DNA from: Clostridia bacterium
GTDB taxonomy: Bacteria > Bacillota > Clostridia > Oscillospirales > CAG-272
Assembly (NCBI GenBank): GCA_017621655.1
Contig: JAGASS010000029.1
Coordinates: 6,477-70,476, forward strand
Direction: 5' to 3'
DNA: 64,000 nt
The notes beneath the pieces were generated by a model. The model was not told where the DNA came from and made no database searches. It was given only the letters and a program-made list of their open reading frames with translations. The position numbers were made by a program, and so were the translations under genes. How positions within the stretch are numbered: the first letter of the stretch is position 1; every line of letters starts with the position of its first letter. Below are positions 34,674 to 52,576 of the stretch, piece after piece.

Positions 34674-34707
34674 AACGCGATACTCGTTTGAGTATCGCGT
34701 TTTTTTG
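34674..34707 (+). terminator. Intrinsic terminator
   Basis: AACGCGATACTC-GTTT-GAGTATCGCGTT followed by TTTTT. Confidence 0.85.
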
Positions 34708-34713
34708 TGTCCG

Positions 34714-34975
34714 AAAACCACGCGTGAGAAGCGTGGTTCAAAAAAGGTTTACCGATGAGCAGAAATGACGCAAGTGAATGGCTCCCTCCGGGAGGGAGCT
34801 GTCACCGAAGGTGACTGAAGGAGCCATCGGGTGAGAAACGTCCGATAGAAGATATTTACAGAACCGCCCTAATGAGAAGGGCAACGCTCTATAATTCCAT
34901 TCATCGCGTGCTCCTTCCGTCTTTTTGCTTCGCAAAAATCCACCTCCCTCCCGGAGGGAGGCAAAGAAACGTTCC
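34714..34975 (+). repeat. Module B structured repeat, copy 1 (short form with 5' hairpin)
   Basis: Opening hairpin ACCACGC-GTGAGAA-GCGTGGT. The core is ATGGCTCC...GGAGCCAT enclosing two hairpins, then ATCGGGTGAGAAACGTCCGAT, GCCCTAATGAGAAGGGC, TTTGCTTCGCAAA and CCTCCCTCCCGGAGGGAGG. Confidence 0.85.
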
Positions 34976-34989
34976 CGCGGGGATATTTA

Positions 34990-35463
34990 TTATAACCCAC
35001 TAAGGAAAAGGGTTGCGAGTATGAGTAGGGCATCGACGGGAATTTCCCCTTCTCGGTCCTTGTCGGTGAATATCAGAAACGCGAGACCGAGGAGGAGTAG
35101 ATCGTCGCTACCGAGCTTGCTGAGGTCGATCAGCGGCTTGTCGGTACGCGATGACGTCGGAACGCTATTCGGTATCGGCTCATTTTCGTATCTCTCGCCC
35201 TCTCCGTTCTGACCGAGAATGCCGAACGGCGCTTCGGTCTTGTCGACTATATCATCGCTTCTCTCACGGTAGCTTTCCTCGGTGTACTGCGGATATCGAG
35301 GGGTAATGTCGCGCCCGAATGCAGTTCCTCTTCCGCTTGAGCGAGTGAGCGCGGCTCTTATCGGCGCTTCCTCCGACGGCGGCTTCAAGGTCAAAGCAGT
35401 ACCGCTGTAATCGGGCGGAAGCGGAGCGTCGTTGTTTCTGCCTGCATAGCTTCTTGTGTACAT
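34990..35463 (-). CDS. Hypothetical protein
   Basis: 157 aa. GAGGA RBS. Pro/Ser/Glu-rich N-terminal half with a hydrophobic C-terminus (LLLLGLAFLIF...LLILATLFLSGL). Confidence 0.6.
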   Translation of the reverse strand: MYTRSYAGRNNDAPLPPDYSGTALTLKPPSEEAPIRAALTRSSGRGTAFGRDITPRYPQYTEESYRERSDDIVDKTEAPFGILGQNGEGERYENEPIPNSVPTSSRTDKPLIDLSKLGSDDLLLLGLAFLIFTDKDREGEIPVDALLILATLFLSGL

Positions 35464-35477
35464 TTTATTCCTCGCTT

Positions 35478-35786
35478 TCAGAGGTTTCCGAGCATTTTGC
35501 TCAGATCGGTCAGCTTCATCATTTTGAGCATCTTTATCATGCTGTCGGCACTTTTTCGCCGTTCGGGCGACAGGTACGGCCTTATTGCCGAAATGAGCGC
35601 GATGCGCTCCTCATTGCCTTTCGTGAGGATGCTCGGCACGGCGCTGACCTCTTTTTCGGGCGTCTCTACTTGCGGTGACGGCTTTTCGCTTCCGCCCGTC
35701 AGACCCTCGGCGACGCTCATCAGCTTCGACATCGTTTCGGGGTCCGACATAACGCTTTTCAGCATTTCGGAAATGTTTTCGTCCAT
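35478..35786 (-). CDS. Hypothetical protein
   Basis: 102 aa, AAGGAG RBS, no family recognised. Confidence 0.6.
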   Translation of the reverse strand: MDENISEMLKSVMSDPETMSKLMSVAEGLTGGSEKPSPQVETPEKEVSAVPSILTKGNEERIALISAIRPYLSPERRKSADSMIKMLKMMKLTDLSKMLGNL

Positions 35787-35799
35787 ATTGGCTCCTTTC

Positions 35800-36042
35800 T
35801 CAAAGCCCGAGCGTCTTTTTCAGCTCTTCGGCTTTTTCGGGCGGCACCTTTGAGACAAACGTCTCCATTTCGCTTTTCGACATTTTGTTGATCTTCCGCT
35901 TGATAAATCCTGCGTTATTCACCGCCATGCGTTTTTGTGACTGCGACGCGCCGAGCGCATCTGCGATCTGACCGATCGCTTTTTTCAGCTCTGCATCGTT
36001 CATCGCGGTGATCTTGTTTATCATATCTTGACTGATTTCCAT
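35800..36042 (-). CDS. Hypothetical protein
   Basis: 80 aa, AAGGAAGGTG RBS, predicted helical, no family recognised. Confidence 0.6.
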   Translation of the reverse strand: MEISQDMINKITAMNDAELKKAIGQIADALGASQSQKRMAVNNAGFIKRKINKMSKSEMETFVSKVPPEKAEELKKTLGL

Positions 36043-36126
36043 ATCGCACCTTCCTTAATTTACAAAAAACTGTGGTAATCACTTTCATTCTATGCTATAA
36101 TCAGGTTAGCGTTACTTGGAGGGATT

Positions 36127-36615
36127 ATGAAGATACTTGTTTTTTCTGACAGTCATGGTAAATATGAGAGAATGGCGGACGTTTTTTCGCGTGATAAGTA
36201 CGACGTCGTCCTTTTTCTCGGTGACGGTCTTTCTGATTTCAAGCGTTTGCAAGAAAGCAATATGACAAGCGCGAGAATGATCGCGGTCAAGGGAAACTGC
36301 GACTTTTTCGACGGCACGCCCGAGGAACGGATCATTGATCTTGACGGCTTCCGCGTGCTGATGCTTCACGGACATACGAAAAGCGTAAAGCACGGTACGT
36401 CCGTTCTTGAATATTACGCGAGAGAAAAGGAGGTCGACCTCGTTCTCTACGGTCACACGCACAGCCGCGATATTAGACGCATCGACGGCGAAAAGCCGTT
36501 TTATATATTCAATCCGGGAAGCATAGGCGCATCGTCATACCTGAATCCGTCCTTTGGATATATCGAGACGGTAAAGGGGCAGATCGTGCTTAACGTTACC
36601 GACTACAGGAGCTAA
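36127..36615 (+). CDS. YfcE/MJ0936-family metallophosphoesterase
   Basis: 162 aa. Motifs SDSHG, GDG, GNCD, HGH and GHTH in the canonical order. Confidence 0.85.
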   Translation: MKILVFSDSHGKYERMADVFSRDKYDVVLFLGDGLSDFKRLQESNMTSARMIAVKGNCDFFDGTPEERIIDLDGFRVLMLHGHTKSVKHGTSVLEYYAREKEVDLVLYGHTHSRDIRRIDGEKPFYIFNPGSIGASSYLNPSFGYIETVKGQIVLNVTDYRS

Positions 36616-36616
36616 T

Positions 36617-37117
36617 ATGAAATACGTAAGCTTAAGTAAAAATAAATACGCGGCGCTGTTTGCTACTCTTTTCAGCGCCTTGACGGTTGTCTTTATTTTT
36701 CTTTCAACTCTCGGTCTGCTTTTCAGAGGTATATTTGAGGCATTTGCGCTTGCAGGTGCCGTGACTGTCATACAGATAGTTCAAAGATACCTTATGACTT
36801 ATTACGAGTATATTCTTGACCCTGCGGACGAGCTTCTTACCTATAACCGCCTTACGGTGATTCAGGTGGTCGGTAAAAGGCGTACGTCGGTCTATACCGT
36901 TCCGCTTGCGAATCTGAGTGCCGTTATTCCTTATAAGAAGATGAAAACCGTCGAAAAGGAATACGGAAAGGTCGGTAAGAAAATGTCGTTTTGCCCCGAT
37001 ATGTTTCCAAAGGAAAGCTGTCTTCTTATCTTCGAGGACGGAAACGAGCTGACACTTTTGCGCCTTCAGTGCGGGGGAGATTTTATGTCGGCAATCGAGG
37101 AACGCAGGGGCGTTTGA
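36617..37117 (+). CDS. Hypothetical membrane protein
   Basis: 166 aa. Two N-terminal TM segments. The start lies 2 nt after the upstream stop. Confidence 0.55.
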   Translation: MKYVSLSKNKYAALFATLFSALTVVFIFLSTLGLLFRGIFEAFALAGAVTVIQIVQRYLMTYYEYILDPADELLTYNRLTVIQVVGKRRTSVYTVPLANLSAVIPYKKMKTVEKEYGKVGKKMSFCPDMFPKESCLLIFEDGNELTLLRLQCGGDFMSAIEERRGV

Positions 37118-37208
37118 CAAAAATGTCGGTTTTTGTAAGAAAACTATTGTAAAATCACATTATATTATGATATAATATAAGATACGAAAATTTTGCTCGG
37201 AGGATATT

Positions 37209-37697
37209 ATGGAGAGAGTTTCCAAAATAAACTATTACCTCGACATCGCAGAGACCGTCGCAAAGCGAAGCACCTGCCTTCGCAAGCACTACGGAGCTAT
37301 TATAGTAAAAAACGACTGCATCGTTTCAACGGGCTATAACGGCTCGCCGAGAGGAAGAAAGAACTGTTCCGATATACAGTTCTGTATGCGAGACAAGCTC
37401 AATATCCCGAGGGGCGAAAGATACGAAATGTGCCGTTCGATACACGCTGAGGCGAATGCAATCATTTCCGCATCGCGTGAGGAGATGATCGGCTCAACGC
37501 TCTATATGGCTTGTATCGACGCAAAAACGGGCGAGCTTGCATCGGGTACGTCGAGCTGTGCAATGTGTAAGCGTCAGGTCATAAATGCGGGAATCGAAAA
37601 GGTCGTTATCCGCGATACCGAGGATACATACCGCATTATAGAGGTTTCCGATTGGGTAACGGACGACGACAGCTTGACGGGACAGTTCGGATATTAA
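37209..37697 (+). CDS. dCMP/cytidine deaminase family protein (ComEB-like)
   Basis: 162 aa. Zinc motifs HAEANAI and CAMCKRQVINAGI. Confidence 0.85.
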   Translation: MERVSKINYYLDIAETVAKRSTCLRKHYGAIIVKNDCIVSTGYNGSPRGRKNCSDIQFCMRDKLNIPRGERYEMCRSIHAEANAIISASREEMIGSTLYMACIDAKTGELASGTSSCAMCKRQVINAGIEKVVIRDTEDTYRIIEVSDWVTDDDSLTGQFGY

Positions 37698-37706
37698 GAG
37701 GATAAA

Positions 37707-38432
37707 ATGGCAAAAGAGAGAAATACGCTAAAAAAGATGGCGGAAAAGAAAATAAGGGCAGACAGAAGAAGACGGGAGAAAAACACCGTCATTTTCGTCG
37801 TTTGCGGACTTATGCTTTTCTTTGCCGTTATAGCGATATTTCCTGCCATAAGAAACGAGCGCACCTTCATATATGAAGACGGCGCGTATATAGACCCGAG
37901 TAACGGTAAGACGTACTGTCCTGCCGATATGTCGGCGTATCTAATTAAGACTGAATTTTTTGAGGATGACCTTTACGGTACGATGAGGGGCGATAAGGTG
38001 TATACCATCCCCGGCGTAAAGGGAAGAAATTGGCTCGTTCGACAGCTTGATGATGATCTATACGAGCTTTATTACGAGGAAAACGTGCTTCTTCCGAGCA
38101 TTTCGGAGTTTGAGGCGAGCGAAATGTATCTTTTCGTTGACGAGCCGCTTATTCTTTACCGCGAGGAGATAAAGGATAAGACCGAGCTTGACAGTATCGT
38201 TTCCCTGCTTGTAAACGGCGAAAAAACCGAAAGCATCGGTGAGTTTAATGAGACCTATTCGATCCGCTTCGCATCGGAAAAATACGGTCATATGTATTTC
38301 TGCTTCGAGTACGTTATAACCGATAACGGAAGCTATTTCTACGATCATCTGTCGTTTTCGTATATCAAGGCAAACGGAATGCTCGATGGTTACGTTGAAT
38401 CCTTAAAGGAGCAGCGAGATAATGAAGCTTGA
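37707..38432 (+). CDS. Hypothetical membrane-anchored protein
   Basis: 241 aa. Basic N-terminus followed by a single TM (VIFVVCGLMLFFAVIAIFPAI). Confidence 0.55.
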   Translation: MAKERNTLKKMAEKKIRADRRRREKNTVIFVVCGLMLFFAVIAIFPAIRNERTFIYEDGAYIDPSNGKTYCPADMSAYLIKTEFFEDDLYGTMRGDKVYTIPGVKGRNWLVRQLDDDLYELYYEENVLLPSISEFEASEMYLFVDEPLILYREEIKDKTELDSIVSLLVNGEKTESIGEFNETYSIRFASEKYGHMYFCFEYVITDNGSYFYDHLSFSYIKANGMLDGYVESLKEQRDNEA

Positions 38433-38862
38433 TCTGAGAACGCTTGGCAAAAGCGACGCGCCAATGCTCGCGGTCCTCGAAAAGGAATGCTTTTCCTGCC
38501 CTTGGAGTGAGGAGAGCTTTTATGAATGCCTAGGTAACGAAAGGTTTTACTTCGTCGGGCTTTTTGAAAGCGATGAGCTTATCGGGTACGGCGGACTGAC
38601 GACCGTCCTTGACGAGGGCGACGTTTCGAATATCGCGGTCCGTTCGGATAAGCGCGGACAGGGACTTGGCAAAATGCTTCTTAACGCACTGTGTGAGGAG
38701 GCGCAAAAACGCGGAGTCGTATATTTTCATCTTGAAGTAAGAGAAAGCAACGCCCCTGCGCGTCACCTTTACGAAAGCTTCGGCTTCACGGTAGACGGAA
38801 TAAGAAAAAATTACTATACAAAGCCGCAGGAAAATGCGGTGCTGATGACTAAAAAGCTATGA
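38422..38862 (+). CDS. rimI: Ribosomal-protein-alanine N-acetyltransferase (GNAT)
   Basis: 146 aa. GNAT core RGQGLGKMLL. Located immediately upstream of, and overlapping, tsaD. Confidence 0.75.
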   Translation: MKLDLRTLGKSDAPMLAVLEKECFSCPWSEESFYECLGNERFYFVGLFESDELIGYGGLTTVLDEGDVSNIAVRSDKRGQGLGKMLLNALCEEAQKRGVVYFHLEVRESNAPARHLYESFGFTVDGIRKNYYTKPQENAVLMTKKL

Positions 38863-39863
38863 AGATTTTATCAATTGAAAGCTCCTGCGACGAGACCTCG
38901 GCGGCAGTCGTCGAGATGGGAGAGGAAAGGAAGATACTTTCCAATATCGTCGCTTCACAAATAGAAACGCACGCCTTATACGGCGGTGTAGTTCCCGAGA
39001 TCGCAAGCCGCGCACATAGCGAGGTGATTTCAAAGATTACCTACGAGGCGCTTGAAACGGCAGGTGTTACTTTGGACGATATCGACGCTATCGGCGTGAC
39101 GAATCGCCCCGGGCTTATCGGTGCGCTTCTCGTCGGCGTGAATTTCGCAAAATCCCTTGCGCTGTCAAGAAACATACCGCTTGTCCCCGTGCATCACATA
39201 AGAGGACATATAGCGGCGAATTACCTCGTTCACTCCGACCTTAAGCCGCCATTCCTTGCGCTTGTAGTTTCGGGCGGACACACCTCGCTTATCGAGGTCA
39301 CCGATTATACGCATTTTGAGACCGTCGGCAGAACGAAGGACGACGCGATGGGCGAATCCTTTGACAAGGTCGCGCGCGTTATGGGAATACCTTATCCCGG
39401 CGGCGCGGAAATGGACCGACTCGCCTCGCTCGGCGATAAAAGGGCGTTCAAGCTGCCGTCTGCGGCACTGAACGACGGAAGCTTGGATTTCTCGTTCAGC
39501 GGTCTTAAAACTCATATCATAAACATACTTCACAATATGGAGCAAAAGGGAATCCCTTATCCGAAGGAGGATATTGCGGCTTCCTTTACCGAAACGGTGC
39601 TGGGAAGCGTTGAAAAGAAGCTGAAAATGGCGATCGAACGCTATCCGCATACCTCGCTCGTTCTTGCGGGCGGAGTATCGGCAAACTCGCATCTGCGCTC
39701 GTTTATGGAAGAATTTGCGAAAAAGAACGGAATGAAGTTTTACGTTCCGCCGCGTTCGCTCTGCGGAGACAACGCCGCAATGATCGGCGCGCAGGCGTAT
39801 TATGAATTTATAAACGGAAATACCGCCGACAGTTCGCTGAATGCATACGCGACGGGCGAATAA
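38859..39863 (+). CDS. tsaD: tRNA N6-adenosine threonylcarbamoyltransferase
   Basis: 334 aa. SCDETSAAVV, GVVPEIASRAH, VHHIRGH and SGGHT. Confidence 0.9.
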   Translation: MKILSIESSCDETSAAVVEMGEERKILSNIVASQIETHALYGGVVPEIASRAHSEVISKITYEALETAGVTLDDIDAIGVTNRPGLIGALLVGVNFAKSLALSRNIPLVPVHHIRGHIAANYLVHSDLKPPFLALVVSGGHTSLIEVTDYTHFETVGRTKDDAMGESFDKVARVMGIPYPGGAEMDRLASLGDKRAFKLPSAALNDGSLDFSFSGLKTHIINILHNMEQKGIPYPKEDIAASFTETVLGSVEKKLKMAIERYPHTSLVLAGGVSANSHLRSFMEEFAKKNGMKFYVPPRSLCGDNAAMIGAQAYYEFINGNTADSSLNAYATGE

Positions 39864-39880
39864 TTTTAGGAGAAAACACA

Positions 39881-41050
39881 ATGGCAAACTACGAAAATCA
39901 GATCAAAAGCGCAGTAGAAAAATACGAAGCATTGCTTCGCTCACAGCTCGAAAGAGTTGAAAAGATAAATGCGGCAGGTGACGCTGTAGATTATTCCAAA
40001 ATGGATAAGATCGTCATCGGTATCTGTGGCGGAGACGGTATCGGACCGATAATCACCGATGCATCGAAAAAGGTTCTCGAATATCTGCTCGCAGACGACG
40101 TCAAGAGCGGAAAAATTGAGTTCAAGGTTATCGACGGACTTACCATCGAAAACCGCGTAAAGCATATGCAGGCGATCCCCGACGAGGTCATGGAGGAGCT
40201 TTATAAGTGTGACGTTATCCTCAAGGGACCGACAACGACTCCCCGTGCAGGCGATCCTTGGCCGAACATCGAGAGCGCAAACGTTGCTATGAGAAAGAAA
40301 CTCGACCTTTTCGCAAACGTCCGTCCCGTCAAGGTTCCCGATAAGGGCATCGATTGGACCTTCTTCCGCGAGAACACCGAGGGAAGCTATGCGGTAGGAT
40401 CGCAGGGCGTGAACGTGACCGACGATCTCGCGCTTGATTTCTGCGTTACTACGACTGAGGGCTGTAACCGTATCGCGCGCCTCGCTTACGAGTATGCAAG
40501 AAAGAACGGCAAAAACCGTGTTTCGATAGTTACGAAGGCAAATATCATCAAGACGACCGACGGTAAGTTCCTCCGTCTCTGCGAAGAGGTCGGCAAGGAA
40601 TATCCCGAGATCGAGACCGATAACTGGTTTATCGACATTATGACGGCGAAGCTCGTTGACGAGAAGCGCCGCACTGCGTTTCAGGTATTCATTCTTCCTA
40701 ACCTCTATGGCGACATCATCACCGACGAGGCGGCAGAATTCCAGGGTGGTGTAGGTACTGCCGGCTCTGCGAATATCGGTAAGAAATACGCAATGTTCGA
40801 GGCGATCCACGGCTCTGCTCCCAGAATGATAACCGAGGGCAGAGGAAAGTACGCGGATCCCTGCTCGATGCTCCGCGCAACCGTTATGCTCCTTTCGCAT
40901 ATCGGCTATCAGGAGGAGAGCGACCGTCTTGCGCGCGCTCTTGACATCTGTATGTTCGAAGAAAAGAAGCTCGTCGTAACGGGACGTGATACGGGTGCTA
41001 CCTGTGAAGAATTCACCGCGTACGTAAACGAAACGCTGAAGAAGATCTAA
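39881..41050 (+). CDS. Isocitrate/isopropylmalate dehydrogenase family protein
   Basis: 389 aa. GDGIGPII, NLYGDIITDEAAEFQGGVG and HGSAP. Substrate not assignable by eye. Confidence 0.75.
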   Translation: MANYENQIKSAVEKYEALLRSQLERVEKINAAGDAVDYSKMDKIVIGICGGDGIGPIITDASKKVLEYLLADDVKSGKIEFKVIDGLTIENRVKHMQAIPDEVMEELYKCDVILKGPTTTPRAGDPWPNIESANVAMRKKLDLFANVRPVKVPDKGIDWTFFRENTEGSYAVGSQGVNVTDDLALDFCVTTTEGCNRIARLAYEYARKNGKNRVSIVTKANIIKTTDGKFLRLCEEVGKEYPEIETDNWFIDIMTAKLVDEKRRTAFQVFILPNLYGDIITDEAAEFQGGVGTAGSANIGKKYAMFEAIHGSAPRMITEGRGKYADPCSMLRATVMLLSHIGYQEESDRLARALDICMFEEKKLVVTGRDTGATCEEFTAYVNETLKKI

Positions 41051-41229
41051 AATTGGCTCCCCCTCGCAGATGCCAAAGGCATCTGCTTGGAGCATCCGCG
41101 AAGCGGTGAGGGATTGTTTTAGAGCGTTTTTAACTTTTACAATCCCTCCGCCTCGCAAGCTCGGCACCTCCCTTTGCACAAGGGAGGTGGTGGAAGCAAG
41201 CTCGGAACCTAACGCGTTTCCGTTGTACC
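41051..41229 (+). repeat. Hairpin-rich mosaic spacer
   Basis: GCAGATGCC-AAA-GGCATCTGC, GAGGGATTGT...ACAATCCCTC and CACCTCCCTT-TGCAC-AAGGGAGGTG. The string CAAGCTCGG[C/A]ACCT occurs twice. Confidence 0.6.
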
Positions 41230-41436
41230 AATAAGATGTATCTTTATATGGCTCCCTCCGGGAGGGAGCTGTCGAGCCGTAGGCGAGACTGAAGGAGCCA
41301 TCGGGCGAGAAATGCTCGATAATAGATGTTTATGGAACCGCCCTAATGAGACGGGCAATTCTCTATAATATCTTTCATCGCGGGCTCCCTTCGTCCGTGG
41401 CTCTGCCGCTTGCACCATCCCTCCCGGAGGGAGGCA
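41230..41436 (+). repeat. Module B structured repeat, copy 2 (most divergent, core only)
   Basis: ATGGCTCCCTCCGGGAGGGAGCTGTCGAGCCGTAGGCGAGACTGAAGGAGCCATCGGGCGAGAAATGCTCGAT...GCCCTAATGAGACGGGC...CCCTCCCGGAGGGAGG. Ends 9 nt before the rex RBS. Confidence 0.8.
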
Positions 41437-41459
41437 GATTCCCGAAAGGAGATATAAAA

Positions 41460-42038
41460 ATGAAAACTGCATATATCTCCGCGGGCGCGAAGCGTCTGCC
41501 GCGTTATTTCAGAACGCTTCGCGAATGCCTGATGAACGGCGAGATAAAAATAAGCTCGTCAGTTCTTGCGAAGAAGCTCGATATAACCCCCTCGCAGGTC
41601 CGTGCCGATCTCAACAGATACTCGGGCGCAGGGCTTCAGGGCTACGGATATAACGTAAAAACGCTGTATACCGAAATAAGCCGCGACCTCGGCGTTGGTG
41701 ACGGAATGAGTGCCGTTATTATAGGCGCCGAGCCGTCAAACGCGCCTCATCTTGCAACGTGGCTTGAGGGCAGGGGAATATCGGATATGAGGTTTATCCT
41801 CTTTGATGAAGGTATCTATTCAAAGGTCGAAAAGCTTGACTGCGACATCGCGCTTATCCTCTATTGCGACGATAAGGAAAAAATGCAGTCTGCACTTCGC
41901 CAATCGGGCGTAAAGGGCGTCTGGAATATGACGCAGAGCGATTTTGACCTCGATATTCCGACGGTAAATCTGCCCGTCGGAGACATACTCTCGGCACTTA
42001 TGTACGAGATAAAGCAAAACGAGAAAGGAGAGAAATGA
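41460..42038 (+). CDS. rex: Rex-like redox-sensing repressor homologue with a degenerate dinucleotide-binding loop
   Basis: ORF 41346..42038. Start is MKTAYIS at 41460, after AAAGGAG. N-terminal RLPRYFR...GYGYNV is the Rex wHTH. IIGAEPSN occupies the place of the GxGxxG loop. Confidence 0.7.
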   Translation: MKTAYISAGAKRLPRYFRTLRECLMNGEIKISSSVLAKKLDITPSQVRADLNRYSGAGLQGYGYNVKTLYTEISRDLGVGDGMSAVIIGAEPSNAPHLATWLEGRGISDMRFILFDEGIYSKVEKLDCDIALILYCDDKEKMQSALRQSGVKGVWNMTQSDFDLDIPTVNLPVGDILSALMYEIKQNEKGEK

Positions 42039-43986: not shown

Positions 43987-43999
43987 AAGGATATTTGAT

Positions 44000-44761: not shown

Positions 44762-44845
44762 TGCTGTTAAGTATTGACAAATCGGCGGAAATTGTATAAA
44801 ATAATAACGGATATAAAAGTCTTTTCAAACGAAAGGAGCAATATT

Positions 44846-45133
44846 ATGGCAGACGAACTTTTTAACGAAGAAGTGTTCACACTTACCGACGAGGACGGCA
44901 ACGAAAAGCAGTTTGAGCTTCTCGGAAGCCAGGAGATCGACGGTGAAACATATCTCGCGCTCGTTCCGATCGAGGATAACGAGAACGAGGAATACGTTAT
45001 TCTCAAGGTAGCGGTCGATGAGGAAAGCGGCGAGGAGATACTCGTTACGATCGACGATGACGACGAGTTTGACCGCGTTGCGGATTTCTTTAACGACGAG
45101 CTTTTCGGCGAGATCGACTACGACGAGGAATAA
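44846..45133 (+). CDS. DUF1292 family protein
   Basis: ORF 44774..45133. Start is MADELF at 44846, after AAAGGAG. Acidic, with LTDEDGNEKQFELLG...YLALVP. Confidence 0.75.
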   Translation: MADELFNEEVFTLTDEDGNEKQFELLGSQEIDGETYLALVPIEDNENEEYVILKVAVDEESGEEILVTIDDDDEFDRVADFFNDELFGEIDYDEE

Positions 45134-45354
45134 TAAATTTCCTGCTTAGTGCGTGATAGATCGGCTATTAAAACCTACAAGAGATAAATGGAGCTTTATC
45201 TTCGTTATCTGGGTATGCAGACCTCCCCGCCCGCCTGCTTATGTCACGCGGTCAACGGGATGCTGGGAGCACAAATGATGCGAGAGGGCACCAACCTGCA
45301 CAGGCGGGTTTCTCAATGGCTGTCTACACGGCTCGGCGGGGTACACAAAAAATT

Positions 45355-45382
45355 AACGCAGAGGATTTCCTCTGCGTTTTCT
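45355..45382. terminator. Bidirectional intrinsic terminator
   Basis: AACGCAGAGGA-TTT-CCTCTGCGTT, with TTTTCTG downstream on plus and AATTTTTT downstream on minus. Confidence 0.8.
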
Positions 45383-45386
45383 GTTA

Positions 45387-46055
45387 TTAAATAACGTAAA
45401 AATACACACAAATAAATTGCAGCACGCTTCCGAGCAGGGCGAAAAGGTGGAAGATAAAGTGGAAGTAGCGGTGCTTTTTGCCGATGCCGTAGATGACCGC
45501 GCCGACGGTGTAGGCAACGCCGCCGAGAAGCAGATAGATGAACGCCTCGATCGGTAACGCCTTAAGAACAGTGTCTCCGGCAAGGAATATCGACCAGCCC
45601 ATTCCTATGTAGCAAGCCATCGCGAATTTGCTGTAATTCTTCAGGTCTATCGACGTAAGAACTGCGGCTATGATTCCGAAGCCCCAGACGACTCCGAATA
45701 TTATCCAAGCCCACATGGACGAAACGGGGCGGATCGCCGAGAGAAGTATCGGCGTGTATGTGCCTGCAATAAGGAGGTTTATCGTCGAGTGGTCGATTAT
45801 GCGCATGACCTGCTTGGCGATTCCCGGTCTTACTGCGTGATATATGCTTGACGCAGTGTAGAGCAGGATCATCGACGCGCCGTATATCGCCGCACCGACG
45901 ACCGACCACGCGTCAACGCTTGACGCTTTTATAACGCACAGTATAAGAACGACAATTCCGAAAACAGCACCTATCGCGTGTGATAGTGAGTGTAGGAATT
46001 CCTCCGGCTTCGAGTAAGTCGGAAGCAGACGGTCGCGTAATTTAGTTCTCTTCAT
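45387..46055 (-). CDS. Hemolysin III / PAQR family membrane protein (TrhA-like)
   Basis: ORF 45387..46184. Preferred start is MKRTKLRD at 46055 (GAGG upstream). Seven hydrophobic segments, with HAIGAV...IDHSTI...HLF motifs. Confidence 0.8.
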   Translation of the reverse strand: MKRTKLRDRLLPTYSKPEEFLHSLSHAIGAVFGIVVLILCVIKASSVDAWSVVGAAIYGASMILLYTASSIYHAVRPGIAKQVMRIIDHSTINLLIAGTYTPILLSAIRPVSSMWAWIIFGVVWGFGIIAAVLTSIDLKNYSKFAMACYIGMGWSIFLAGDTVLKALPIEAFIYLLLGGVAYTVGAVIYGIGKKHRYFHFIFHLFALLGSVLQFICVYFYVI

Positions 46056-46173
46056 GTCTTGCCTCGCAGTAATGGAATGAATTGATTTTATCATAACTTT
46101 GTGTATTTTTTGATAATACACTGTGTATTTTTCAAAAATTAAAACGCGGAATATGTCGAAACGTTCCCGCGTT

Positions 46174-46374
46174 CTATTCTTCAATATACATTAAAATATC
46201 TTCTACACGGCAGGTAAGGATCTTGCAAAGATCGTTAAGCGTTACTGTCGTGATCGGCTTGTTGTGTTTCAGTCGGTCAAGGAGACTTCTGCTGATCCCG
46301 TATTCGTTTATGAGCTTGTAGGTCGTTATTCCTTTTTTCTTCATCGTTTCATATAGCGGCTCGTATGAGATCAT
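46174..46374 (-). CDS. Small XRE-type HTH regulator
   Basis: 66 aa. TTYKLINEYGISRSLLDRLKHN...LNDLCKILTCRVEDIL. Same mini-HTH family as 222..434 and 5332..5553. Confidence 0.8.
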   Translation of the reverse strand: MISYEPLYETMKKKGITTYKLINEYGISRSLLDRLKHNKPITTVTLNDLCKILTCRVEDILMYIEE

Positions 46375-46476
46375 AAATTCACCTCCTGATATTTTAATTA
46401 TATTTTATGCTCCATCTCTTGACAATTGTCGAGATATAGAGTATAATTACTTCAAATAATGTGTTAGGAGAAGAGT

Positions 46477-46812
46477 ATGAAAAATGGTAGTATAGGCAAA
46501 ACAATAATGAAAGCATCAAAATATGTTTATATAGCCGGAATGGCGTTTGCGTCGTTGTCGGCTATTGTGGAAGTTTTTACTTTTCTTGAAGCGGCAGCGA
46601 ACTATCCCCGTTTCCCCTTTTTTGCGTTTGCGTTAATTGTTGCCAAATATTTGTTGATCGTATTCGGCGTATGGTTTTTCTCTTTGATCGTGGCGGGATA
46701 CGGGCGAATTGTTGAAGATAATTCCAAAAAAGCAAAAGCGGCGGAAGAACTAAATTCAATTCTATTAATGAAGCAAGAAGATACCGTTTATTCGCAGGAT
46801 AATGATGAATAA
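46477..46812 (+). CDS. Hypothetical membrane protein
   Basis: 111 aa. Two TM segments. AGGAGAAG RBS. Confidence 0.55.
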   Translation: MKNGSIGKTIMKASKYVYIAGMAFASLSAIVEVFTFLEAAANYPRFPFFAFALIVAKYLLIVFGVWFFSLIVAGYGRIVEDNSKKAKAAEELNSILLMKQEDTVYSQDNDE

Positions 46813-46816
46813 TGAA

Positions 46817-46840
46817 AAGAACCCAAATGGGCTCTTTTTT
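46817..46840 (+). terminator. Intrinsic terminator
   Basis: AAGAACCC-AAAT-GGGCTCTT followed by TTTT (one mismatch in the stem). Confidence 0.6.
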
Positions 46841-46887
46841 ACCCTCTCCGTCTGCTTCGCAGACACCTCTCCCGAAGGGCGAGGCAC

Positions 46888-46909
46888 GGACCGTCGAGGA
46901 CGCCGGTCC
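46888..46909 (-). repeat. Hairpin module C, inverted copy
   Basis: GGACCG-TCGAGGACG-CCGGTCC. The loop is the reverse complement of the CGTCCTCGA loop at 6574..6596 and 62124..62146. The stem differs but is still paired. Confidence 0.55.
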
Positions 46910-46951
46910 CTACAATGACGCGGGAGGAACGATGTGACGTGGCGAATTTCC

Positions 46952-47094
46952 CTTAAACCGAAAAGGGTTTCCAAAGGGGAAAACGTGAGCAGAATTTTGC
47001 GAAGGCAAAATTCAAACCCGTTGTCCCCTTGGCGTGGTTCTTTTGGTAGGTTTGCGAAGCAAAACTACTCTTTTCATTGCACGAGCAAGAAAAG
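46952..47094 (+). repeat. Module A repeat, copy 2
   Basis: Collinear with 10863..11012. The inner hairpin is GAATTTTGC-GAAG-GCAAAATTC instead of AAAATTTGC-TATC-GCAAATTTT. Confidence 0.8.
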
Positions 47095-47122
47095 TTAGTA
47101 AAAAGATACATAACTTATGTAA

Positions 47123-47166
47123 CACCTCATCCGAGGTTTACCTCTTACCTTCCCCCTGGGGGGAAG
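47123..47166 (-). repeat. Hairpin module D, short variant
   Basis: CACCTCATCCG...ACCTTCCCC-CTGG-GGGGAAGG. Confidence 0.6.
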
Positions 47167-47209
47167 GCAAGGTGGCGCTTAATATAATTCTAATAAACTC
47201 TAAATCACC

Positions 47210-47238
47210 TTGACAAATCAAAAGAAAAGAGTTACAAT
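47210..47238 (+). promoter_or_regulatory. Sigma-A promoter of the transketolase genes
   Basis: TTGACA (47210-47215), 17-nt spacer, TACAAT (47233-47238). Confidence 0.7.
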
Positions 47239-47277
47239 ATCACTGTATGTAAAAATTACTCTAATGGAGGCAATTCA

Positions 47278-48114
47278 ATGGATCAGAACAAAATCAAAGA
47301 GCTGAAGCTCAAAAGTGCAGAGATAAAGCTCGGCGCACTTGAGGGAGTGTTCAGCGCATCGTCAGGACATCCGGGCGGATCGCTCTCGATCTCCGATATT
47401 CTCGCTTACCTCTACTTCGAGGCAATGAACGTAGACGTAAATAATCCCAAGTGGGAAGACCGCGACCGTCTCGTTCTTTCAAAGGGTCATACCGCGCCCG
47501 GTCTCTATGCGGCACTTGCTCTCAAGGGCTTCATCCCGAGAGAAGACCTTAAGACCCTTCGTCAGGCAGACAGCTACCTTCAGGGTCACCCCGATATGAA
47601 GCACACCCCCGGTGTCGATATGACCTCCGGCTCGCTCGGACTCGGAATTTCCGCCGCTTGCGGAATGGCACTTTCTGCAAAGATCAGAAATAAGAATTAC
47701 TATACCTATGCTATCCTCGGCGACGGCGAGTGCGAAGAGGGACAGGTTTGGGAAGCGGCTATGTTCGCAGCTCATAAGAAGCTCGATAACCTCTGCATCT
47801 TCGTTGACTTCAACGGTCTCCAGATCGACGGACCCGTTACAGAAGTCGTTGACCCCACTCCTATCGACAAGAAGTTCGAGGCGTTCAACTGGAACGTTAT
47901 AGTTATCGACGGTCACGATCTTGAGCAGATCGACGCAGCAGTCAAGGCAGCTCACGCTAGTATGGGCAAGCCCACCGCAATCATTTGCAACTGCGTCAAG
48001 GGTAAGGGCGTTTCCTTTATGGAAAACAACGTCAAGTGGCACGGCTCCGCGCCCAACGCAGAGCAGTACGAGCAGGCAGTGAACGAGATCAATGCCTACA
48101 TCGCAACTATTTGA
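47278..48114 (+). CDS. Transketolase, N-terminal (TPP-binding) subunit
   Basis: 278 aa. GHPGGSLS, SKGH and GDGECEEGQVWEA. Confidence 0.9.
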   Translation: MDQNKIKELKLKSAEIKLGALEGVFSASSGHPGGSLSISDILAYLYFEAMNVDVNNPKWEDRDRLVLSKGHTAPGLYAALALKGFIPREDLKTLRQADSYLQGHPDMKHTPGVDMTSGSLGLGISAACGMALSAKIRNKNYYTYAILGDGECEEGQVWEAAMFAAHKKLDNLCIFVDFNGLQIDGPVTEVVDPTPIDKKFEAFNWNVIVIDGHDLEQIDAAVKAAHASMGKPTAIICNCVKGKGVSFMENNVKWHGSAPNAEQYEQAVNEINAYIATI

Positions 48115-48127
48115 GGAGGAAACGAAA

Positions 48128-49066
48128 ATGGCAGATAAGATAGCAACAAGAGAATCCTACGGCAACGCGCTCGTAGAATTCGGAGCAAAATACGATAACC
48201 TCGTTGTCCTCGACGCAGACCTTGCTGAGGCAACGAAAACCATCAAGTTCAAAAAGGCGTTCCCCGAAAGATTTTTCGACTGCGGTATCGCTGAGGGCAA
48301 CATGGTCGCAGTTGCGGCAGGACTTGCTACAACGGGTATGATTCCGTTCGTCAGCACCTTCGCAATGTTTGCGGCAGGCAGAGCTTTCGAGCAGATCAGA
48401 AACGCTGTCGGTTATCCTCATCTTAACGTAAAGATCGGTGCAACTCACGCAGGTATCACCGTAGGTGAAGACGGCGCGACCCACCAGTGCCTCGAGGACA
48501 TCGGTACTATGCGTACCATTCCCGGCATGACCATCATCAACCCCTGCGACGACGTTGAGGCGCGTGCGGCAGTTCAGGCGGCTATCGAGTTCGACGGTCC
48601 CTGCTACCTCCGTTTCGGACGTTACGCAGTTCCGGTGATCAATGGCGAGGACTATAAGTTCGAGATCGGCAAGGGCGTAACGCTCGCTGACGGTAAGGAC
48701 GTTACCATTATTGCAACCGGTATTACCGTTGCTATGGCTCTTGAAGCAAAGGAGCTTCTTAAGGCAGACGGAATTGATGCAAGAGTTATCAATATCCATA
48801 CTATCAAGCCCCTTGATACCGAGCTTGTAGTCAAGGCAGCTAAGGAAACCGGCGCTATTGTTACCGCAGAGGAGCATAATATCATCGGCGGTCTCGGCTC
48901 GGCAGTTTGCGAGGCAGTCTGTGAAGCAGCACCCGTACCGGTAGTACGCGTAGGTGTAAACGACACCTTCGGCCGTTCCGGTAAGGTTCCGCCCCTTCTT
49001 GAAATGTACGGTCTCACCGCGCAGAACATCGCGGAGAACGCAAAGAAGGCAGTTGCTCTGAAATAA
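48128..49066 (+). CDS. Transketolase, C-terminal (pyrimidine-binding) subunit
   Basis: ORF 48092..49066. Start is MADKIATRESYG at 48128, after GAGGAGGA. FFDCGIAEGNMV and TVGEDGATHQ. Confidence 0.9.
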   Translation: MADKIATRESYGNALVEFGAKYDNLVVLDADLAEATKTIKFKKAFPERFFDCGIAEGNMVAVAAGLATTGMIPFVSTFAMFAAGRAFEQIRNAVGYPHLNVKIGATHAGITVGEDGATHQCLEDIGTMRTIPGMTIINPCDDVEARAAVQAAIEFDGPCYLRFGRYAVPVINGEDYKFEIGKGVTLADGKDVTIIATGITVAMALEAKELLKADGIDARVINIHTIKPLDTELVVKAAKETGAIVTAEEHNIIGGLGSAVCEAVCEAAPVPVVRVGVNDTFGRSGKVPPLLEMYGLTAQNIAENAKKAVALK

Positions 49067-49074
49067 TAAAGTTA

Positions 49075-49103
49075 AAAAGGAACTCTTCGGAGTTCCTTTT
49101 TCT
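49075..49103 (+). terminator. Intrinsic terminator of the tkt operon
   Basis: AAGGAACTC-TTCG-GAGTTCCTT followed by TTTCTT. Confidence 0.85.
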
Positions 49104-49110
49104 TAGACAC

Positions 49111-49563
49111 CAAAACCACGCGATAGTCGCGTGGTTAAAAAAAGGTTAACCGATGAACAGAAATGATGTAAAGAAAAAATGTAGTTTAAGGGTAGTATGT
49201 GCCAATGGCTCCAACTCCGGAGTAGTTTGCTGCGCAACCTACGGGAGCTGTCAGCGTAGCTGACTGAAGGAGCCATCGGGCGAGAAACGCTCGATAAAAG
49301 ATATTTACGGAACCGCCCTAATGAAAAGGACAACGCTCTATAATCCCTTTCATCGCGTGCTCCTTCCGTCTTTTTGCTTCGCAAAAATCCACCTCCCTCC
49401 CGGAGGGAGGCAATGAAACGTCCCTGAACCCATTTATGGGTAGCAAGTATCCAATGCATGGCTGGCAGGCCAATTTAAGGCGCACTTGTGCGCAGCCAGT
49501 AGTATTAGGGCTACGCCCGAAAATGAAATACCCCCCGCTATGCGGGGGGATGTTTATTTTTTT
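49111..49563 (+). repeat. Module B structured repeat, copy 3 (long form ending in a terminator)
   Basis: Opening hairpin ACCACGCG-ATAGT-CGCGTGGT. The core has an expanded first hairpin and GTCAGC-GTA-GCTGAC. A 3' extension of about 130 nt ends in CCCCCCGCTATGCGGGGGG plus ATGTTTATTTTTTT. Confidence 0.85.
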
Positions 49564-49628
49564 GTTGATTTTTCGCGTACGATATGATAATATGAAGAAA
49601 AGATGTTTTCTTTCGGAGGATAACCATT

Positions 49629-51959
49629 ATGTATATCGGGAACTGCAAAAACGTAAAGTTTTCATACACGAAATTCGGCGGTAAGATCCCGCTTGAGCCG
49701 GAGATAACAGACGATGGCGCGATACTGTTCAAATGGCAGAGAATATGTAAAACTGGCTTTGAGATTCAGTTCGTGCTTGATAAAGAATATTACGTCGGAT
49801 CGGTGACGGTCCCGTTTCATGAGGACTCTAAGGTCTGCTCGGTCAAGCTGATATCGAAGGGAAAGACCGTCGGGGTGTTCAATGCCGGTAACGGAAATAT
49901 GAAGGGCGGCAGAATAACAGTAGACGCAGGCGTTTTCACCGATAAGCTGACCGTCAGGATCGAAAGCGGAATATATGACGTTTGGTTTAATAAGCCCGAG
50001 GTGTCGGTATTTGAAAACGACACGCCGATCCTTTGGCCTATCCCTAAAAAAGCAAGCTTTGAAGACGGAACGGTCAGAATTTCAAGCATATCGGGAGAGG
50101 GAAGCGATGCGCTTTTTGCGGCAGGTTTCCTTGATGAGCTTCTTAACGAGCGCTTCGGTGACGTAAAAAGCGAGGACGGGGTTCCCGTTACTGTAATAAG
50201 CGATGAAGATCATGACGGCGAAAGATATACGGTTTCGGTTAAGAAGAACGGCATTACTTTGAGAGCATCAAAGAGGATATCACTTCTTTATGCAGTTTAT
50301 GCGTTGATCTCTCTTGGAGAAAAAGGCGAATTCCGTATCGCTGAGATCGACAACTGCCCCTCGCTTGAATTCCGCGGCTTCCATATGGGACTTCCGAAGG
50401 TTTCAAATATAGGATTCACTAAGCGGCTTTTCCGTGATATGCTTCTGCCGCTTGGATATAATACTCTGTTCGTACAGATATTCGGCTCAATGGAATATGA
50501 GCGTCATCCCGAGATAACGGAGGCGTGGAGAAAACAGCTTCAGATCGACCCTAAATTCCCGCACCATGCGCTCGGATGCGAGGGCGAAACGATCTCTAAA
50601 AAAGAGGTTTCGGAGCTTATTGACTACATAAGAGAGCTTGGCTTTGAAATAATCCCCGAGGTTCAGTCGCTCGGTCACGTTCAGTGGTTGACGCTTCCGC
50701 ACCCCGAGATCGCCGAGGCGGTAAAGCATAACGTGACGGTTGAAGATACGCGTAACGAGGACCTCCGCCCGTCTGAGGAGTATTTCCATTGCTACTGTCC
50801 GTCAAACGAGGATAGCTACAAGCTGATCTTTGACGTAATGGACGAGATAATCGAGGTCACAAAGCCGCAAAGATTCGTTCATATCGGACACGACGAGGTC
50901 TATAATATAGGTCTTTGCGATAAATGCAAGAACACACCGCCGGATATACTCTTTGCAAGGGACGTTCAGCGTATATATGAGCACCTGAAGGAGCTTGGCT
51001 ACCGCACGATGATGTGGTCCGATATGCTTCAGCCGGGCACCGATTATCTCACGCCGCCCGCAAGAAAGCTTCTTCCGCGCGATATAATAATGCTTGATTT
51101 TATATGGTACTTCAATTTTGCCGAGGATATTGAGGATAATCTTTACGAAGAGGGCTACAAGGTAATGGCGGGTAACCTTTATTCGTCACATTATCCGCGT
51201 TACAATAAGCGTGCAAGAGCTGAGAATTTCATAGGCGGCGAGGTCTCGACTTGGTGCGCGGTAAACGAAGAAACTCTTGCTGTAAACGGTAAGCTTTGGG
51301 ATATTATGTATACCTCGGAAATGCTCTGGAATCCCGAAAATTACGATGATTCTCACCGCAAGGCGTTCAGCTATGTCATATCGAAATATATTCAGCCGAA
51401 AATGCGCGATCTGGTAAGAGACAAATTCTCTGCTCACGGATATTCCGAAACCCAATTTGAATTGCCGACGGGAAGCAATGAGGGAATATCGCACGAGCTT
51501 ATGAAAGCTTATCCGTACGCTGTGATTGCCGACGGCGTAACGGTAAACGTCGGCGGAAGCTTTGAAAGATTCAAAATTGAGCATACAGCGCTCGAAAAGG
51601 AAATGCGTATGCGACATGCCGATCTTGCCCTTTCGGGAGAATATACTGTAAGATATTCTGACGGAAGCGAGTGGAAGATAAAGGTAGAGTATGCAGGTAA
51701 CATTATGAAGTGCGACACCTGTTACGCCCGTCCTTTCCCCGAAGCTCTTTACAGACATATCGGCTATGTGGGAACGTGGTTAAGCGATCCCGCTTACGAG
51801 GGTAAGACGGAAAACGGAGATGATCTGCTTGTCATGAGCTGTATCGTAGAGAATCCTTATCCCGAGAAGACCGTTGAAAGCATCAGCTACAATGCCGCCA
51901 AAGATGACGTGACGAACGTTCTCCTTTGCGGAATAAAGGGAATGAATAAGATTAATTAA
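49629..51959 (+). CDS. GH20-like beta-N-acetylhexosaminidase family protein, cytoplasmic
   Basis: 776 aa, GGAGGA RBS, no signal peptide. FRGFHMGL, IPEVQSLGH and the HIGHDEV Asp-Glu pair resemble GH20 core motifs. Confidence 0.6.
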   Translation: MYIGNCKNVKFSYTKFGGKIPLEPEITDDGAILFKWQRICKTGFEIQFVLDKEYYVGSVTVPFHEDSKVCSVKLISKGKTVGVFNAGNGNMKGGRITVDAGVFTDKLTVRIESGIYDVWFNKPEVSVFENDTPILWPIPKKASFEDGTVRISSISGEGSDALFAAGFLDELLNERFGDVKSEDGVPVTVISDEDHDGERYTVSVKKNGITLRASKRISLLYAVYALISLGEKGEFRIAEIDNCPSLEFRGFHMGLPKVSNIGFTKRLFRDMLLPLGYNTLFVQIFGSMEYERHPEITEAWRKQLQIDPKFPHHALGCEGETISKKEVSELIDYIRELGFEIIPEVQSLGHVQWLTLPHPEIAEAVKHNVTVEDTRNEDLRPSEEYFHCYCPSNEDSYKLIFDVMDEIIEVTKPQRFVHIGHDEVYNIGLCDKCKNTPPDILFARDVQRIYEHLKELGYRTMMWSDMLQPGTDYLTPPARKLLPRDIIMLDFIWYFNFAEDIEDNLYEEGYKVMAGNLYSSHYPRYNKRARAENFIGGEVSTWCAVNEETLAVNGKLWDIMYTSEMLWNPENYDDSHRKAFSYVISKYIQPKMRDLVRDKFSAHGYSETQFELPTGSNEGISHELMKAYPYAVIADGVTVNVGGSFERFKIEHTALEKEMRMRHADLALSGEYTVRYSDGSEWKIKVEYAGNIMKCDTCYARPFPEALYRHIGYVGTWLSDPAYEGKTENGDDLLVMSCIVENPYPEKTVESISYNAAKDDVTNVLLCGIKGMNKIN

Positions 51960-51963
51960 CGTT

Positions 51964-51995
51964 AGATCGCTCTCCTTAGGGGGAGCGATCTTTAT
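51964..51995 (+). terminator. Hairpin terminator-like element after the GH20-like gene
   Basis: AGATCGCTCTCC-TTAG-GGGGAGCGATCT followed by a weak T tract (TTTATG). Confidence 0.5.
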
Positions 51996-52002
51996 GTAAA
52001 TG

Positions 52003-52450
52003 AAATCCCCGCCATAGTGGCGGGGTTCAATATAGGTTTACCGATGAACAGAAATGATGTAAAGAAAAAATGCAGTTTAAGGGCAGTTCACGCCAATGGC
52101 TCCAACTCCGGAGTAGTTTGCTGCGCAACCTACGGGAGCTGTCACCGAAGGTGACTGAAGGAGCCATCGGGCGAGAAACGTCCGATAGAAGATATTTACA
52201 GAACTGCCCTAATGAGAAGGGCAACGGTCTATAATTCCATTCATCGCGTGCTCCTTCCGTCTTTTTGCTTCGCAAAAATCCACCTCCCTCCCGGAGGGAG
52301 GCAATGAAACATCCCTGAACCCATTTATGGGTAGCAAGTATCCAATGCATGGCTGGCAGGCCAATCTAAAGCGCACTTGTGCGCAGCCAGTAGTATTAGG
52401 GCTACGCCCGAAAATGAAATATCCCCCCGCTATGCGGGGGGATGTTTATT
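52003..52450 (+). repeat. Module B structured repeat, copy 4 (long form)
   Basis: Opening hairpin CCCCGCC-ATAGT-GGCGGGG. Collinear with copy 3, with about 21 differences in the first 315 or so aligned nt by hand count. Ends in CCCCCCGCTATGCGGGGGG. Confidence 0.85.
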
Positions 52451-52510: not shown

Positions 52511-52539
52511 TTGACAGACGGGAAGAATAGTGGTATATT
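52511..52539 (+). promoter_or_regulatory. Sigma-A promoter of the hrcA-grpE-dnaK-dnaJ operon
   Basis: TTGACA (52511-52516), 17-nt spacer, TGgTATATT (-10 at 52534-52539). Confidence 0.8.
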
Positions 52540-52549: not shown

Positions 52550-52576
52550 TTAGCACTCGACCGCTTTGAGTGCTAA
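52550..52576 (+). promoter_or_regulatory. CIRCE operator (HrcA binding site)
   Basis: Perfect TTAGCACTC-N9-GAGTGCTAA. Confidence 0.95.

Follow-up and report, generated by a model that had tools for sequence, protein, structure and literature searches.

The stretch of DNA analysed here (hereafter the window) covers 64,000 nucleotides (nt) of contig JAGASS010000029.1 from an uncultured Clostridia bacterium and contains four copies, c1 to c4, of one intergenic repeat family, all on the plus strand. A sequence-only reading of the window had taken the family to be consistent with a structured plus-strand RNA, while naming a mobile element as another candidate. Our analysis makes it probable that the family is nested, non-autonomous mobile DNA, in which a palindromic core (layer 1) is enclosed, in c1, c3 and c4, by the gutted shell of an IS200 insertion sequence (IS; layer 2). 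The family is best explained as joining two known kinds of element, a derivative of IS200 resembling palindrome-associated transposable elements (PATE-like) and a repeat resembling REPINs or miniature inverted-repeat transposable elements (MITEs), and not as a new RNA gene.

The four same-strand copies were recovered by direct reading, by a repeat finder (families D9 and D15) and by four-way alignment. An invariant 22-mer, GAAGGAGCCATCGGGNGAGAAA, searched for with up to three mismatches, occurred four times in the window, against 0.00 occurrences expected from shuffled sequences. The copies stand as originally proposed, with corrected limits of 34707–34991 for c1 (first placed at 34714–34975), 41249–41436 for c2, 49105–49558 for c3 and 51996–52450 for c4. 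Both c3 and c4 are complete non-autonomous IS200-derived elements. In c3, a left end (49105–49205, with a hairpin at 49114–49136) is followed by the core (49206–49412), a remnant of the 3′ end of the transposase gene tnpA (49424–49450) and a right end reaching to 49558, with a hairpin at 49531–49549 and a terminal TTTATT at 49553–49558. The corresponding parts of c4 are the left end at 51996–52096 (hairpin 52007–52025), the core at 52097–52303, the tnpA remnant at 52315–52341 and the right end to 52450 (hairpin 52423–52441). The decayed element c1 begins directly after a terminator T-run (34700–34706) and retains the left end with its hairpin (34716–34738) and the core (34779–34963). Its inner right end is deleted, as is the 5′ half of the hairpin there, and of the right end just the final ~13 nt remain, the terminus GGGGATATTTATT at 34979–34991. 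Copy c2 is the core alone, without IS200 ends, in a 409-nt spacer between icd and rex. Its position ending 9 nt before the rex ribosome-binding site, the location of c1, c3 and c4 directly 3′ of intrinsic terminators of upstream genes, the end of c3 about 66–70 nt upstream of the start codon of a gene of glycoside hydrolase family 20 (GH20), and the presence of every hairpin listed were all as first described.

The origin of the shell was recognised from the 3′ module of c3, which in a blastn comparison with plasmid records matched two Subdoligranulum variabile records with 71% identity over 139 nt. The match covers the 3′ end of a 152-amino-acid (aa) open reading frame (ORF) together with sequence downstream of it, and this ORF is a Y1 HUH transposase (PF01797) of the IS200/IS605 family, with thousands of relatives. 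Transposases of the family end in ...KEYxDPF(T/M)GSK*, and the long copies keep LNPFMGSK at the matching position; moreover, an autonomous IS200 (L023) and c3 have in common an identical 22-mer, acccatttatgggtagcaagta, spanning the transposase C-terminus. Alignment showed the left ends of c1, c3 and c4 to be homologous over about 60 nt to the left ends in L021, L023 and L026, including a hairpin at about nt 10–32 that covaries (CCACGCG/CGCGTGG, CCCCGCC/GGCGGGG, CCACCGG/CCGGTGG, CCTCTGG/CCAGAGG). Right ends were homologous over about 130 nt to those of autonomous IS200, again with covarying internal hairpins. The shell keeps a 5′ module of ~95 nt in which the left end is recognisable over about 60 nt, the last eight tnpA codons and about 105 nt of right end.

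All right-end termini read TATT, mostly as TTATT (CTATT in L023). At every junction with known flanking sequence, derivative or autonomous, the left end lay directly 3′ of a T-run: eight left junctions and two autonomous copies followed TTTTT, TTTAT(T) or TTCTT(T). The autonomous relatives, from S. variabile and two metagenome contigs, have homologous ends and likewise lie directly after a terminator T-run; they carry a stem that sequesters the Shine-Dalgarno (SD) sequence, and they lack the core. No transposase gene was detectable in the window by tblastn with TnpA, and the ORFs inside the copies were not conserved in frame. Published descriptions give IS200 a bidirectional terminator hairpin in the left end (nt 12–34), a weak promoter and an SD-sequestering stem (PMC4513863), and PATE-like elements consist of a left end, an ORF tail and a right end (PMC7290912). 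Judged by their sequence, c3, c4 and the decayed c1 are PATE-like deletion derivatives of IS200 in which the core stands in place of tnpA.

Because the extensions of the long copies are IS200 ends, several features that had pointed to RNA find an explanation: covariation in the opening hairpin, a ‘terminator’ at the end of the repeat, and a position after terminators. The compensatory swaps in the opening hairpin are real and belong to the IS200 left end, whereas the 3′ extension, formerly read as the terminator of a transcript, is the IS200 right-end hairpin and is missing from core-only copies. IS200/IS605 elements transpose as the top strand only and target the lagging-strand template (PMC5027513). 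Between about 28 kb and 64 kb the plus strand has a positive GC skew, as would fit a leading strand there, and given this skew the single orientation of the copies is probably due to such strand-specific transposition. The alternative once offered, a REP- or PATE-like element mobilised as single-stranded DNA (ssDNA) and oriented by strand-specific transposition, was essentially correct for c1, c3 and c4, although it overlooked that the core is a separable unit and that the core is in turn an inverted pair of one module. An autonomous IS with these ends, which that reading had named as grounds for refuting it, exists at the level of the family, as homologous IS200 copies, but the exact parent was not found.

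Further features were seen at the autonomous loci. One S. variabile IS200 copy (L022, 781–936 and 2519–3053) is split by a ~1.6-kb insertion just 3′ of the tnpA start codon. Sequences resembling tRNA 3′ ends (GGTTCGAATCCCACCTCCTCCGCCA and its reverse complement; L023, 1270–1330 and 2065–2110) flank the autonomous IS200 of L023, which again lies directly after a terminator T-run. An Eco57I-type gene also adjoins the IS200 in L023, and the window itself contains two adjoining Eco57I/MmeI-like restriction-modification methylase genes (675–5335, minus strand).

The core, about 188–207 bp long, consists of two inverted arms of ~57–65 nt around a centre of ~60 nt. Each arm is a module in three parts: a GC-rich hairpin of 8 bp whose triloop varies, a GTC...GAC hairpin whose triloop is G-N-A, and a tail reading (C)TGAAGGAGC. 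The left arm of c1 (34776–34832, plus strand), for example, reads GCTCCCTC-CGG-GAGGGAGC, then GTCACC-GAA-GGTGAC, then a CTGAAGGAGCC tail; the equivalent left arms lie at 41246–41306, 49203–49281 and 52094–52172. A covariance model (R1) built from domain 1, the first ~57 nt of the core, matched the four left ends on the plus strand (60–81 bits). On the minus strand the whole model also matched the right end of every core (E 2e-9 to 6e-4; 34902–34966 in c1, 41376–41439, 49351–49415 and 52242–52306 in the others). Comparison of left arms with reverse-complemented right arms showed that hairpins 1 and 6 are counterparts, as are hairpins 2 and 5 and the GAAGGAGC tails. As the right arm is an inverted left arm, the TTC loop of hairpin 5 is a GAA loop in the orientation of its own arm; G-N-A triloops closed by C-G are a motif of exceptionally stable DNA mini-hairpins (PMC13037366, PMC3201870). 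The terminal 23 nt of the core match in inverted orientation at 21/23 positions (TGGCTCCCTCCGGGAGGGAGCTG and TGCCTCCCTCCGGGAGGGAGGTG); alignment of the arms extends over about 65 nt. In the minimum-free-energy fold arm pairs with arm, for DNA and RNA and on both strands, the minus strand being the more stable (−93.0 against −85.2 kcal/mol; z-scores −7.5 and −6.8).

Beyond the four cores, a solitary, diverged two-hairpin module lies on the minus strand at 46841–46889, just 3′ of a terminator (R1 22.5 bits, E 1e-5), and other inverted pairs of modules were found in L003, L015, L016 and L018. Direct reading also picked out a diverged module-like unit on the plus strand at 41051–41119 (GGCTCC-hairpin-GGAGC, TCCGC-GAA-GCGG, TGAGGGA), at the start of the icd–rex spacer upstream of c2, which R1 matches weakly (E 5). 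The module occurs alone and in other inverted pairs, and the core is separable from the IS200 ends. By its architecture the core appears to be a palindromic repeat of the REPIN or MITE kind. A 150-nt intergenic stretch of the window (6778–6929) is 87% identical to a stretch near another core copy (L008, 4264–4416), and weak matches to the module model lie close to it, at 6619–6754.

A genome scan recovered copies in three metagenome-assembled genomes (MAGs) of ruminant-gut Clostridia: RGIG4142, RGIG8528 and an uncultured ‘Ruminococcus’. A match in a fourth genome (L005) had only the 22-mer in common with the family and was set aside as due to chance. RGIG4142, which also holds L008, is a sister species of the window organism (8 kb of common gene order aligns at 85.6%), and the surroundings of its long-form copies (L001, L002 and L004) have no counterpart in the window. 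Alignment of all copies resolved three parts, namely a 5′ module (a hairpin plus 50–95 nt), the ~190-nt core and a 3′ module of ~130 nt that closes with a hairpin and a T tract. The core stands alone in c2 and its orthologue L010, in L003, in L007 and its orthologue L017, and in L008 and L011. Scanning metagenomes with another pattern added one further full core and eight sites with only domain 1, followed by unrelated sequence. A strict 21-base pattern matched six times in RGIG4142 and three times in another MAG, counts to be read with the loss of repeats from MAGs in mind. Several metagenomes (ERZ28654748, ERZ28018929, ERZ28655052 and others) contain 100%-identical contigs. Most copies are co-oriented with the upstream gene, while L011 is antisense to both neighbours.

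The icd–rex gene order, common to six genomes, allowed presence and absence of a core to be compared at one site. The window, L010 and L029 have the same 409-nt spacer with a core, whereas L027, L028 and L030, whose Rex proteins are 89%, 82% and 74% identical, have a ~190-nt spacer without a core, filled by an unrelated hairpin-repeat family (L027 2307–2500, L028 2319–2500, L030 2293–2500; for example GTCACCCTGAGTGGAGCGAAGCGAAATCGAATGGGTCTGGCGACGCTTCGCTCAGGATGAC). Only the last ~25 nt, with the ribosome-binding site, are orthologous across all six spacers. The core as a conserved leader of rex was rejected, three rex orthologues lacking it. The c2 core itself is 98–100% conserved in L010 and L029; the hairpin 5 segment of L029 differs from that of c2, having been swapped for the variant of L003 and L008. 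At the glgC locus, where core-only copies also lie directly upstream of the gene, domain 1 is about 97% identical between L007 and L017 and the rest of the core about 70%, below the coding flanks (84–95%). It may be added that the icd–rex spacer is a single intergenic site colonised by different repeat families in different lineages.

Gene content has also turned over around c3 and c4, which bracket the GH20-family gene (49629–51959, plus strand) as direct repeats. In a relative (L032), transketolase is followed directly by hrcA, without c3, GH20 or c4, so that the window block 49105–52450 is an insertion relative to L032. From c4 onwards a close strain (L031) matches the window at 99.2% identity, and it has different genes upstream (AraC, GH127); its element is of c3 type over the first ~100 nt and of c4 type thereafter, and this chimera, located at the break in gene order, indicates that copies have recombined. 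The GH20 protein was found only on contigs of 2.5–2.9 kb that end inside the flanking repeats. A contig of exactly one 2891-nt period (L034) was treated as a repeat collapse in assembly rather than as a sign of a circular form. The GH20 block may have arisen by composite transposition or by cassette exchange through recombination. A more specific idea, which we regard as unlikely, is that c3 and c4 form a composite single-strand transposon (c3 as left end, c4 as right end) or a recombination cassette, in either case moving glycoside-hydrolase genes into the position upstream of hrcA, or alternatively that the core is exapted functional RNA or DNA cargo. The cargo of such a cassette would be GH20 in the window and the GH127 set in the 99%-identical strain L031, and gutted IS200 elements would, if this is true, be vehicles for carbohydrate-utilisation genes in gut Clostridia. 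Between c4 and hrcA there is a strong promoter (TTGACA-17-TATATT, 52511–52539) and, between promoter and gene, a CIRCE-like inverted repeat (TTAGCACTC-N9-GAGTGCTAA, 52550–52576) that is conserved in L032 and L033.

The claim of a plus-strand structured RNA, whether a small RNA (sRNA) or a cis-regulator, was not supported. The expectation that the family would match no known non-coding RNA (ncRNA) was sound: no Rfam 15 family reached its gathering score anywhere in the window, and a search by E-value over c3 and c4 returned chance-level matches only (STnc490, at E 0.77, among them; a MicF match reflects merely the terminator shape of the left-end hairpin on the minus strand). Pairing-preserving substitutions are indeed present, in hairpin 2 (GTCNNN-GNA-NNNGAC) and hairpin 5 (TTTTGC-TTC-GCAAAA) as well as in the opening hairpin, and 95.8% of pair cells are standard pairs; hairpins 2 and 5 are, however, the two mirrored arms. 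The proposed 8-bp closing stem ATGGCTCC/GGAGCCAT is invariant, so that covariation is silent about it, and alternative pairings compete with it. In the minimum-free-energy fold the two ends of the core pair with each other instead. Loop-only variation in relatives (CGG, CGA, TGA, TCC, AGG) supports a local 8-bp hairpin, GCTCCCTC-NNN-GAGGGAGC. Pairs that hold only as G-U had been taken as a sign of a plus-strand transcript. The excess is there (20 G.T against 3 A.C in hairpin 3), but it is confounded by how the sequences were found, the search pattern having fixed the G-rich 5′ half for most added sequences and variation in the 3′ half consisting of C/T transitions; hairpin 3 is degenerate in L017, which another pattern had recovered.

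A promoter scan found no plus-strand promoter inside the copies, and candidate boxes were not conserved. One inside the core (TCTATAAT) lacks a −35 box and is not conserved outside this genus, its TATAAT box being lost in L003, L007, L008, L011 and L017; a second, weak candidate (TTAACC-17-TAAAGA), in the 5′ module, is disrupted in both c1 and L009. Other origins were also rejected. A small minus-strand protein was considered, as the copies are overlapped by ORFs of 65–118 aa, but these are low in complexity, and the lengths of indels that distinguish the copies are not divisible by three. The core as the ancestral 5′ untranslated region (UTR) of tnpA was considered because an ATG does follow the SD-containing last hairpin; three autonomous IS200 relatives have an ordinary ~100-nt 5′ UTR without the core, core-only copies with sharp boundaries exist, and this was rejected as the main origin. 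As to phage or plasmid origin, there was no phage match, three viral-contig scans were empty, and the plasmid matches were the S. variabile IS200 copies only.

Several observations weigh against nested mobile DNA. The closest autonomous IS200 ends are about 70–85% identical and come from other taxa, none with near-identical ends having been found, and no clean empty site was found in a close strain, L032 being another species with a diverged spacer. No consistent direct repeat, as left by target-site duplication, was found at the core flanks of c1, c2, c3, L003, L008, L011 and L017; no autonomous IS with the core's inverted repeats was found in any locus; and no REP-associated tyrosine transposase (RAYT) was seen, the search being limited to tblastn with IS200 TnpA over loci up to L022, with no sensitive RAYT search. 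Hairpin 3 tolerates G.T on the plus strand only. The c2 spacer, where present, is 95–100% identical, compared with 83–97% for flanking coding sequence, which may point to a selected function, possibly one exerted as RNA; it leaves room for constraint, for recent recombination or for conversion between copies.

These observations bear on three rival explanations. It is improbable, in our estimate, that the core is a plus-strand structured ncRNA (an sRNA, or a cis leader for genes such as rex or glgC) captured once between IS200 ends, with its hairpins maintained because the RNA is functional. The compensatory changes, the G.T excess, the conservation of c2 beyond its coding flanks, the core-only copies directly 5′ of rex and glgC and the co-orientation of most copies with the upstream gene favour it; the confounding of that excess, the missing Rfam match and promoter, and the rex orthologues with an unrelated repeat instead of a core all tell against it. 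So do a fold that is symmetric and more stable on the minus strand, a right arm whose G-N-A loop reads correctly on the minus strand only, the antisense position of L011, and a core centre that diverges faster than the flanking genes between L007 and L017. A classical MITE origin of the core, in which a DDE transposase acted on terminal inverted repeats and the core once inserted into an IS200 with destruction of tnpA, seems to us quite unlikely, if marginally less so. At about 190 bp the core has a typical MITE size, it lies nested within another element and its termini match in inverted orientation; the arms are themselves self-complementary hairpins, however, which makes the apparent terminal inverted repeat partly trivial, and the C-G-closed triloops point to recognition as ssDNA (PMC13037366, PMC3201870), while neither target-site duplication (at seven core boundaries) nor an autonomous partner was seen.

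There is a better, though still minor, chance that core and module are REP-like host elements, no longer mobile, that are kept for 3′-end termination, mRNA stability or protein binding and spread mainly by recombination. The modules are intergenic, often just 3′ of stop codons or terminators; the c2 region is highly conserved; segments have been swapped between copies in mosaic fashion, as in hairpin 5 of L029; and different hairpin-repeat families occupy the same spacer by lineage. Set against this, a discrete 190-bp unit with sharp boundaries in unrelated contexts and several genomes needs some copying mechanism, and most long copies already lie 3′ of a perfectly good terminator. This explanation and nested mobile DNA are compatible and do not exclude each other.

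If the family is nested mobile DNA, the PATE-like elements c1, c3 and c4 would have been moved in trans by an IS200 TnpA, by single-strand ‘peel and paste’, and would insert 3′ of a T-rich pentanucleotide (TT-N-TT) such as the T-runs of terminators supply. Covariation in the hairpins would then reflect the ssDNA pairing needed for TnpA binding, together with maintenance of the palindrome, rather than an RNA fold, and the copies would also serve as substrates for homologous recombination, reshuffling neighbouring genes. Evidence of movement comes from the missing c3 and c4 in L032, the recombinant copy beside different genes in L031, and the RGIG4142 copies in other contexts.

The neighbours of the copies are ordinary chromosomal genes: a pyridoxal-phosphate-dependent enzyme and a zinc-ribbon/DUF4190 protein 5′ of c1, a gene of the isocitrate/isopropylmalate dehydrogenase family (icd in this text) and rex on either side of c2, the gene for the C-terminal subunit of transketolase and GH20 on either side of c3, and GH20 and hrcA on either side of c4. 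Elsewhere the window contains a second, unrelated intergenic repeat family of ~90 nt (TTAAACCGAAAGGGG..CCAAAGGGGAAAACG..TTTGCGAAGGCAAA..CCCCTTGG) at 10866–10951 and 46955–47047 on the plus strand and 61911–62018 on the minus strand, which is also found in a related genome (L033, 6380–6488). Eight tandem paralogous genes of about 1.5–1.67 kb each, with 60–90% DNA identity, occupy 17834–30710 (plus strand); one of them, when tested, matched the GH123 catalytic domain (PF13320).

For RNA discovery, this family provides a false-positive control, as an element that transposes as ssDNA can yield covarying hairpins, copies that all point one way, sites just after terminators and an apparent ‘terminator’ at its own end. 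Newly recorded are a cargo-carrying IS200 derivative and an undescribed double-hairpin module with G-N-A triloops, both from uncultured ruminant-gut Clostridia; related modules occur in human-gut metagenomes. Such repeats break metagenome assemblies, sit at gene-order breakpoints beside glycoside-hydrolase genes and replace one another in intergenic spacers, behaviour that matters for annotation and for reading strain-level variation in gene content.

Among known systems, the long copies are close to PATE-like IS200/IS605 derivatives such as the ends-only IS605 element of Halanaerobium hydrogeniformans (PMC7290912), with which they have in common a left end with a subterminal hairpin, the last transposase codons, a complete right end and no transposase, as well as no terminal inverted repeats between the ends, an apparent insertion by a short specific sequence and a strand-specific orientation. 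They differ in that an unrelated palindromic cassette of ~190–210 bp replaces tnpA, giving an element of 450 bp instead of ends only; in their presumed parent, a tnpA-only IS200 from a clade of gut Clostridia; and in the probable target, a T-rich pentanucleotide in terminator tails. The IS200 of Salmonella and E. coli (PMC4513863) has a similar terminator-like left-end hairpin at about nt 12–34 and a right end of about 140 nt; it encodes the small Y1 transposase that is missing here, and the likeness is one of architecture. The core resembles REPINs and the repetitive extragenic palindromic (REP) sequences and bacterial interspersed mosaic elements that RAYTs mobilise (PMC3116915, PMC3337134, PMC3333891) in having two inverted hairpin modules around a spacer, foldable into one long hairpin, and in its singlet modules, intergenic position and lack of target duplication. 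It departs from them in that no RAYT was found within the search described above, in an apparently low copy number (the six strict-pattern matches in one MAG) and in a module that is a double hairpin of about 57 nt, where REP sequences are single hairpins of ~20–35 nt; nor was their conserved GT(A/G)G head recognised in the module. Bacterial MITEs (Correia, RUP, ERIC and similar), finally, are like the core in its size of about 190 bp, in having inverted ends, in being non-coding and intergenic, and in being able to sit in 5′ leaders; the core differs from them in showing no target-site duplication (at the same seven boundaries) and in having no known parent IS.

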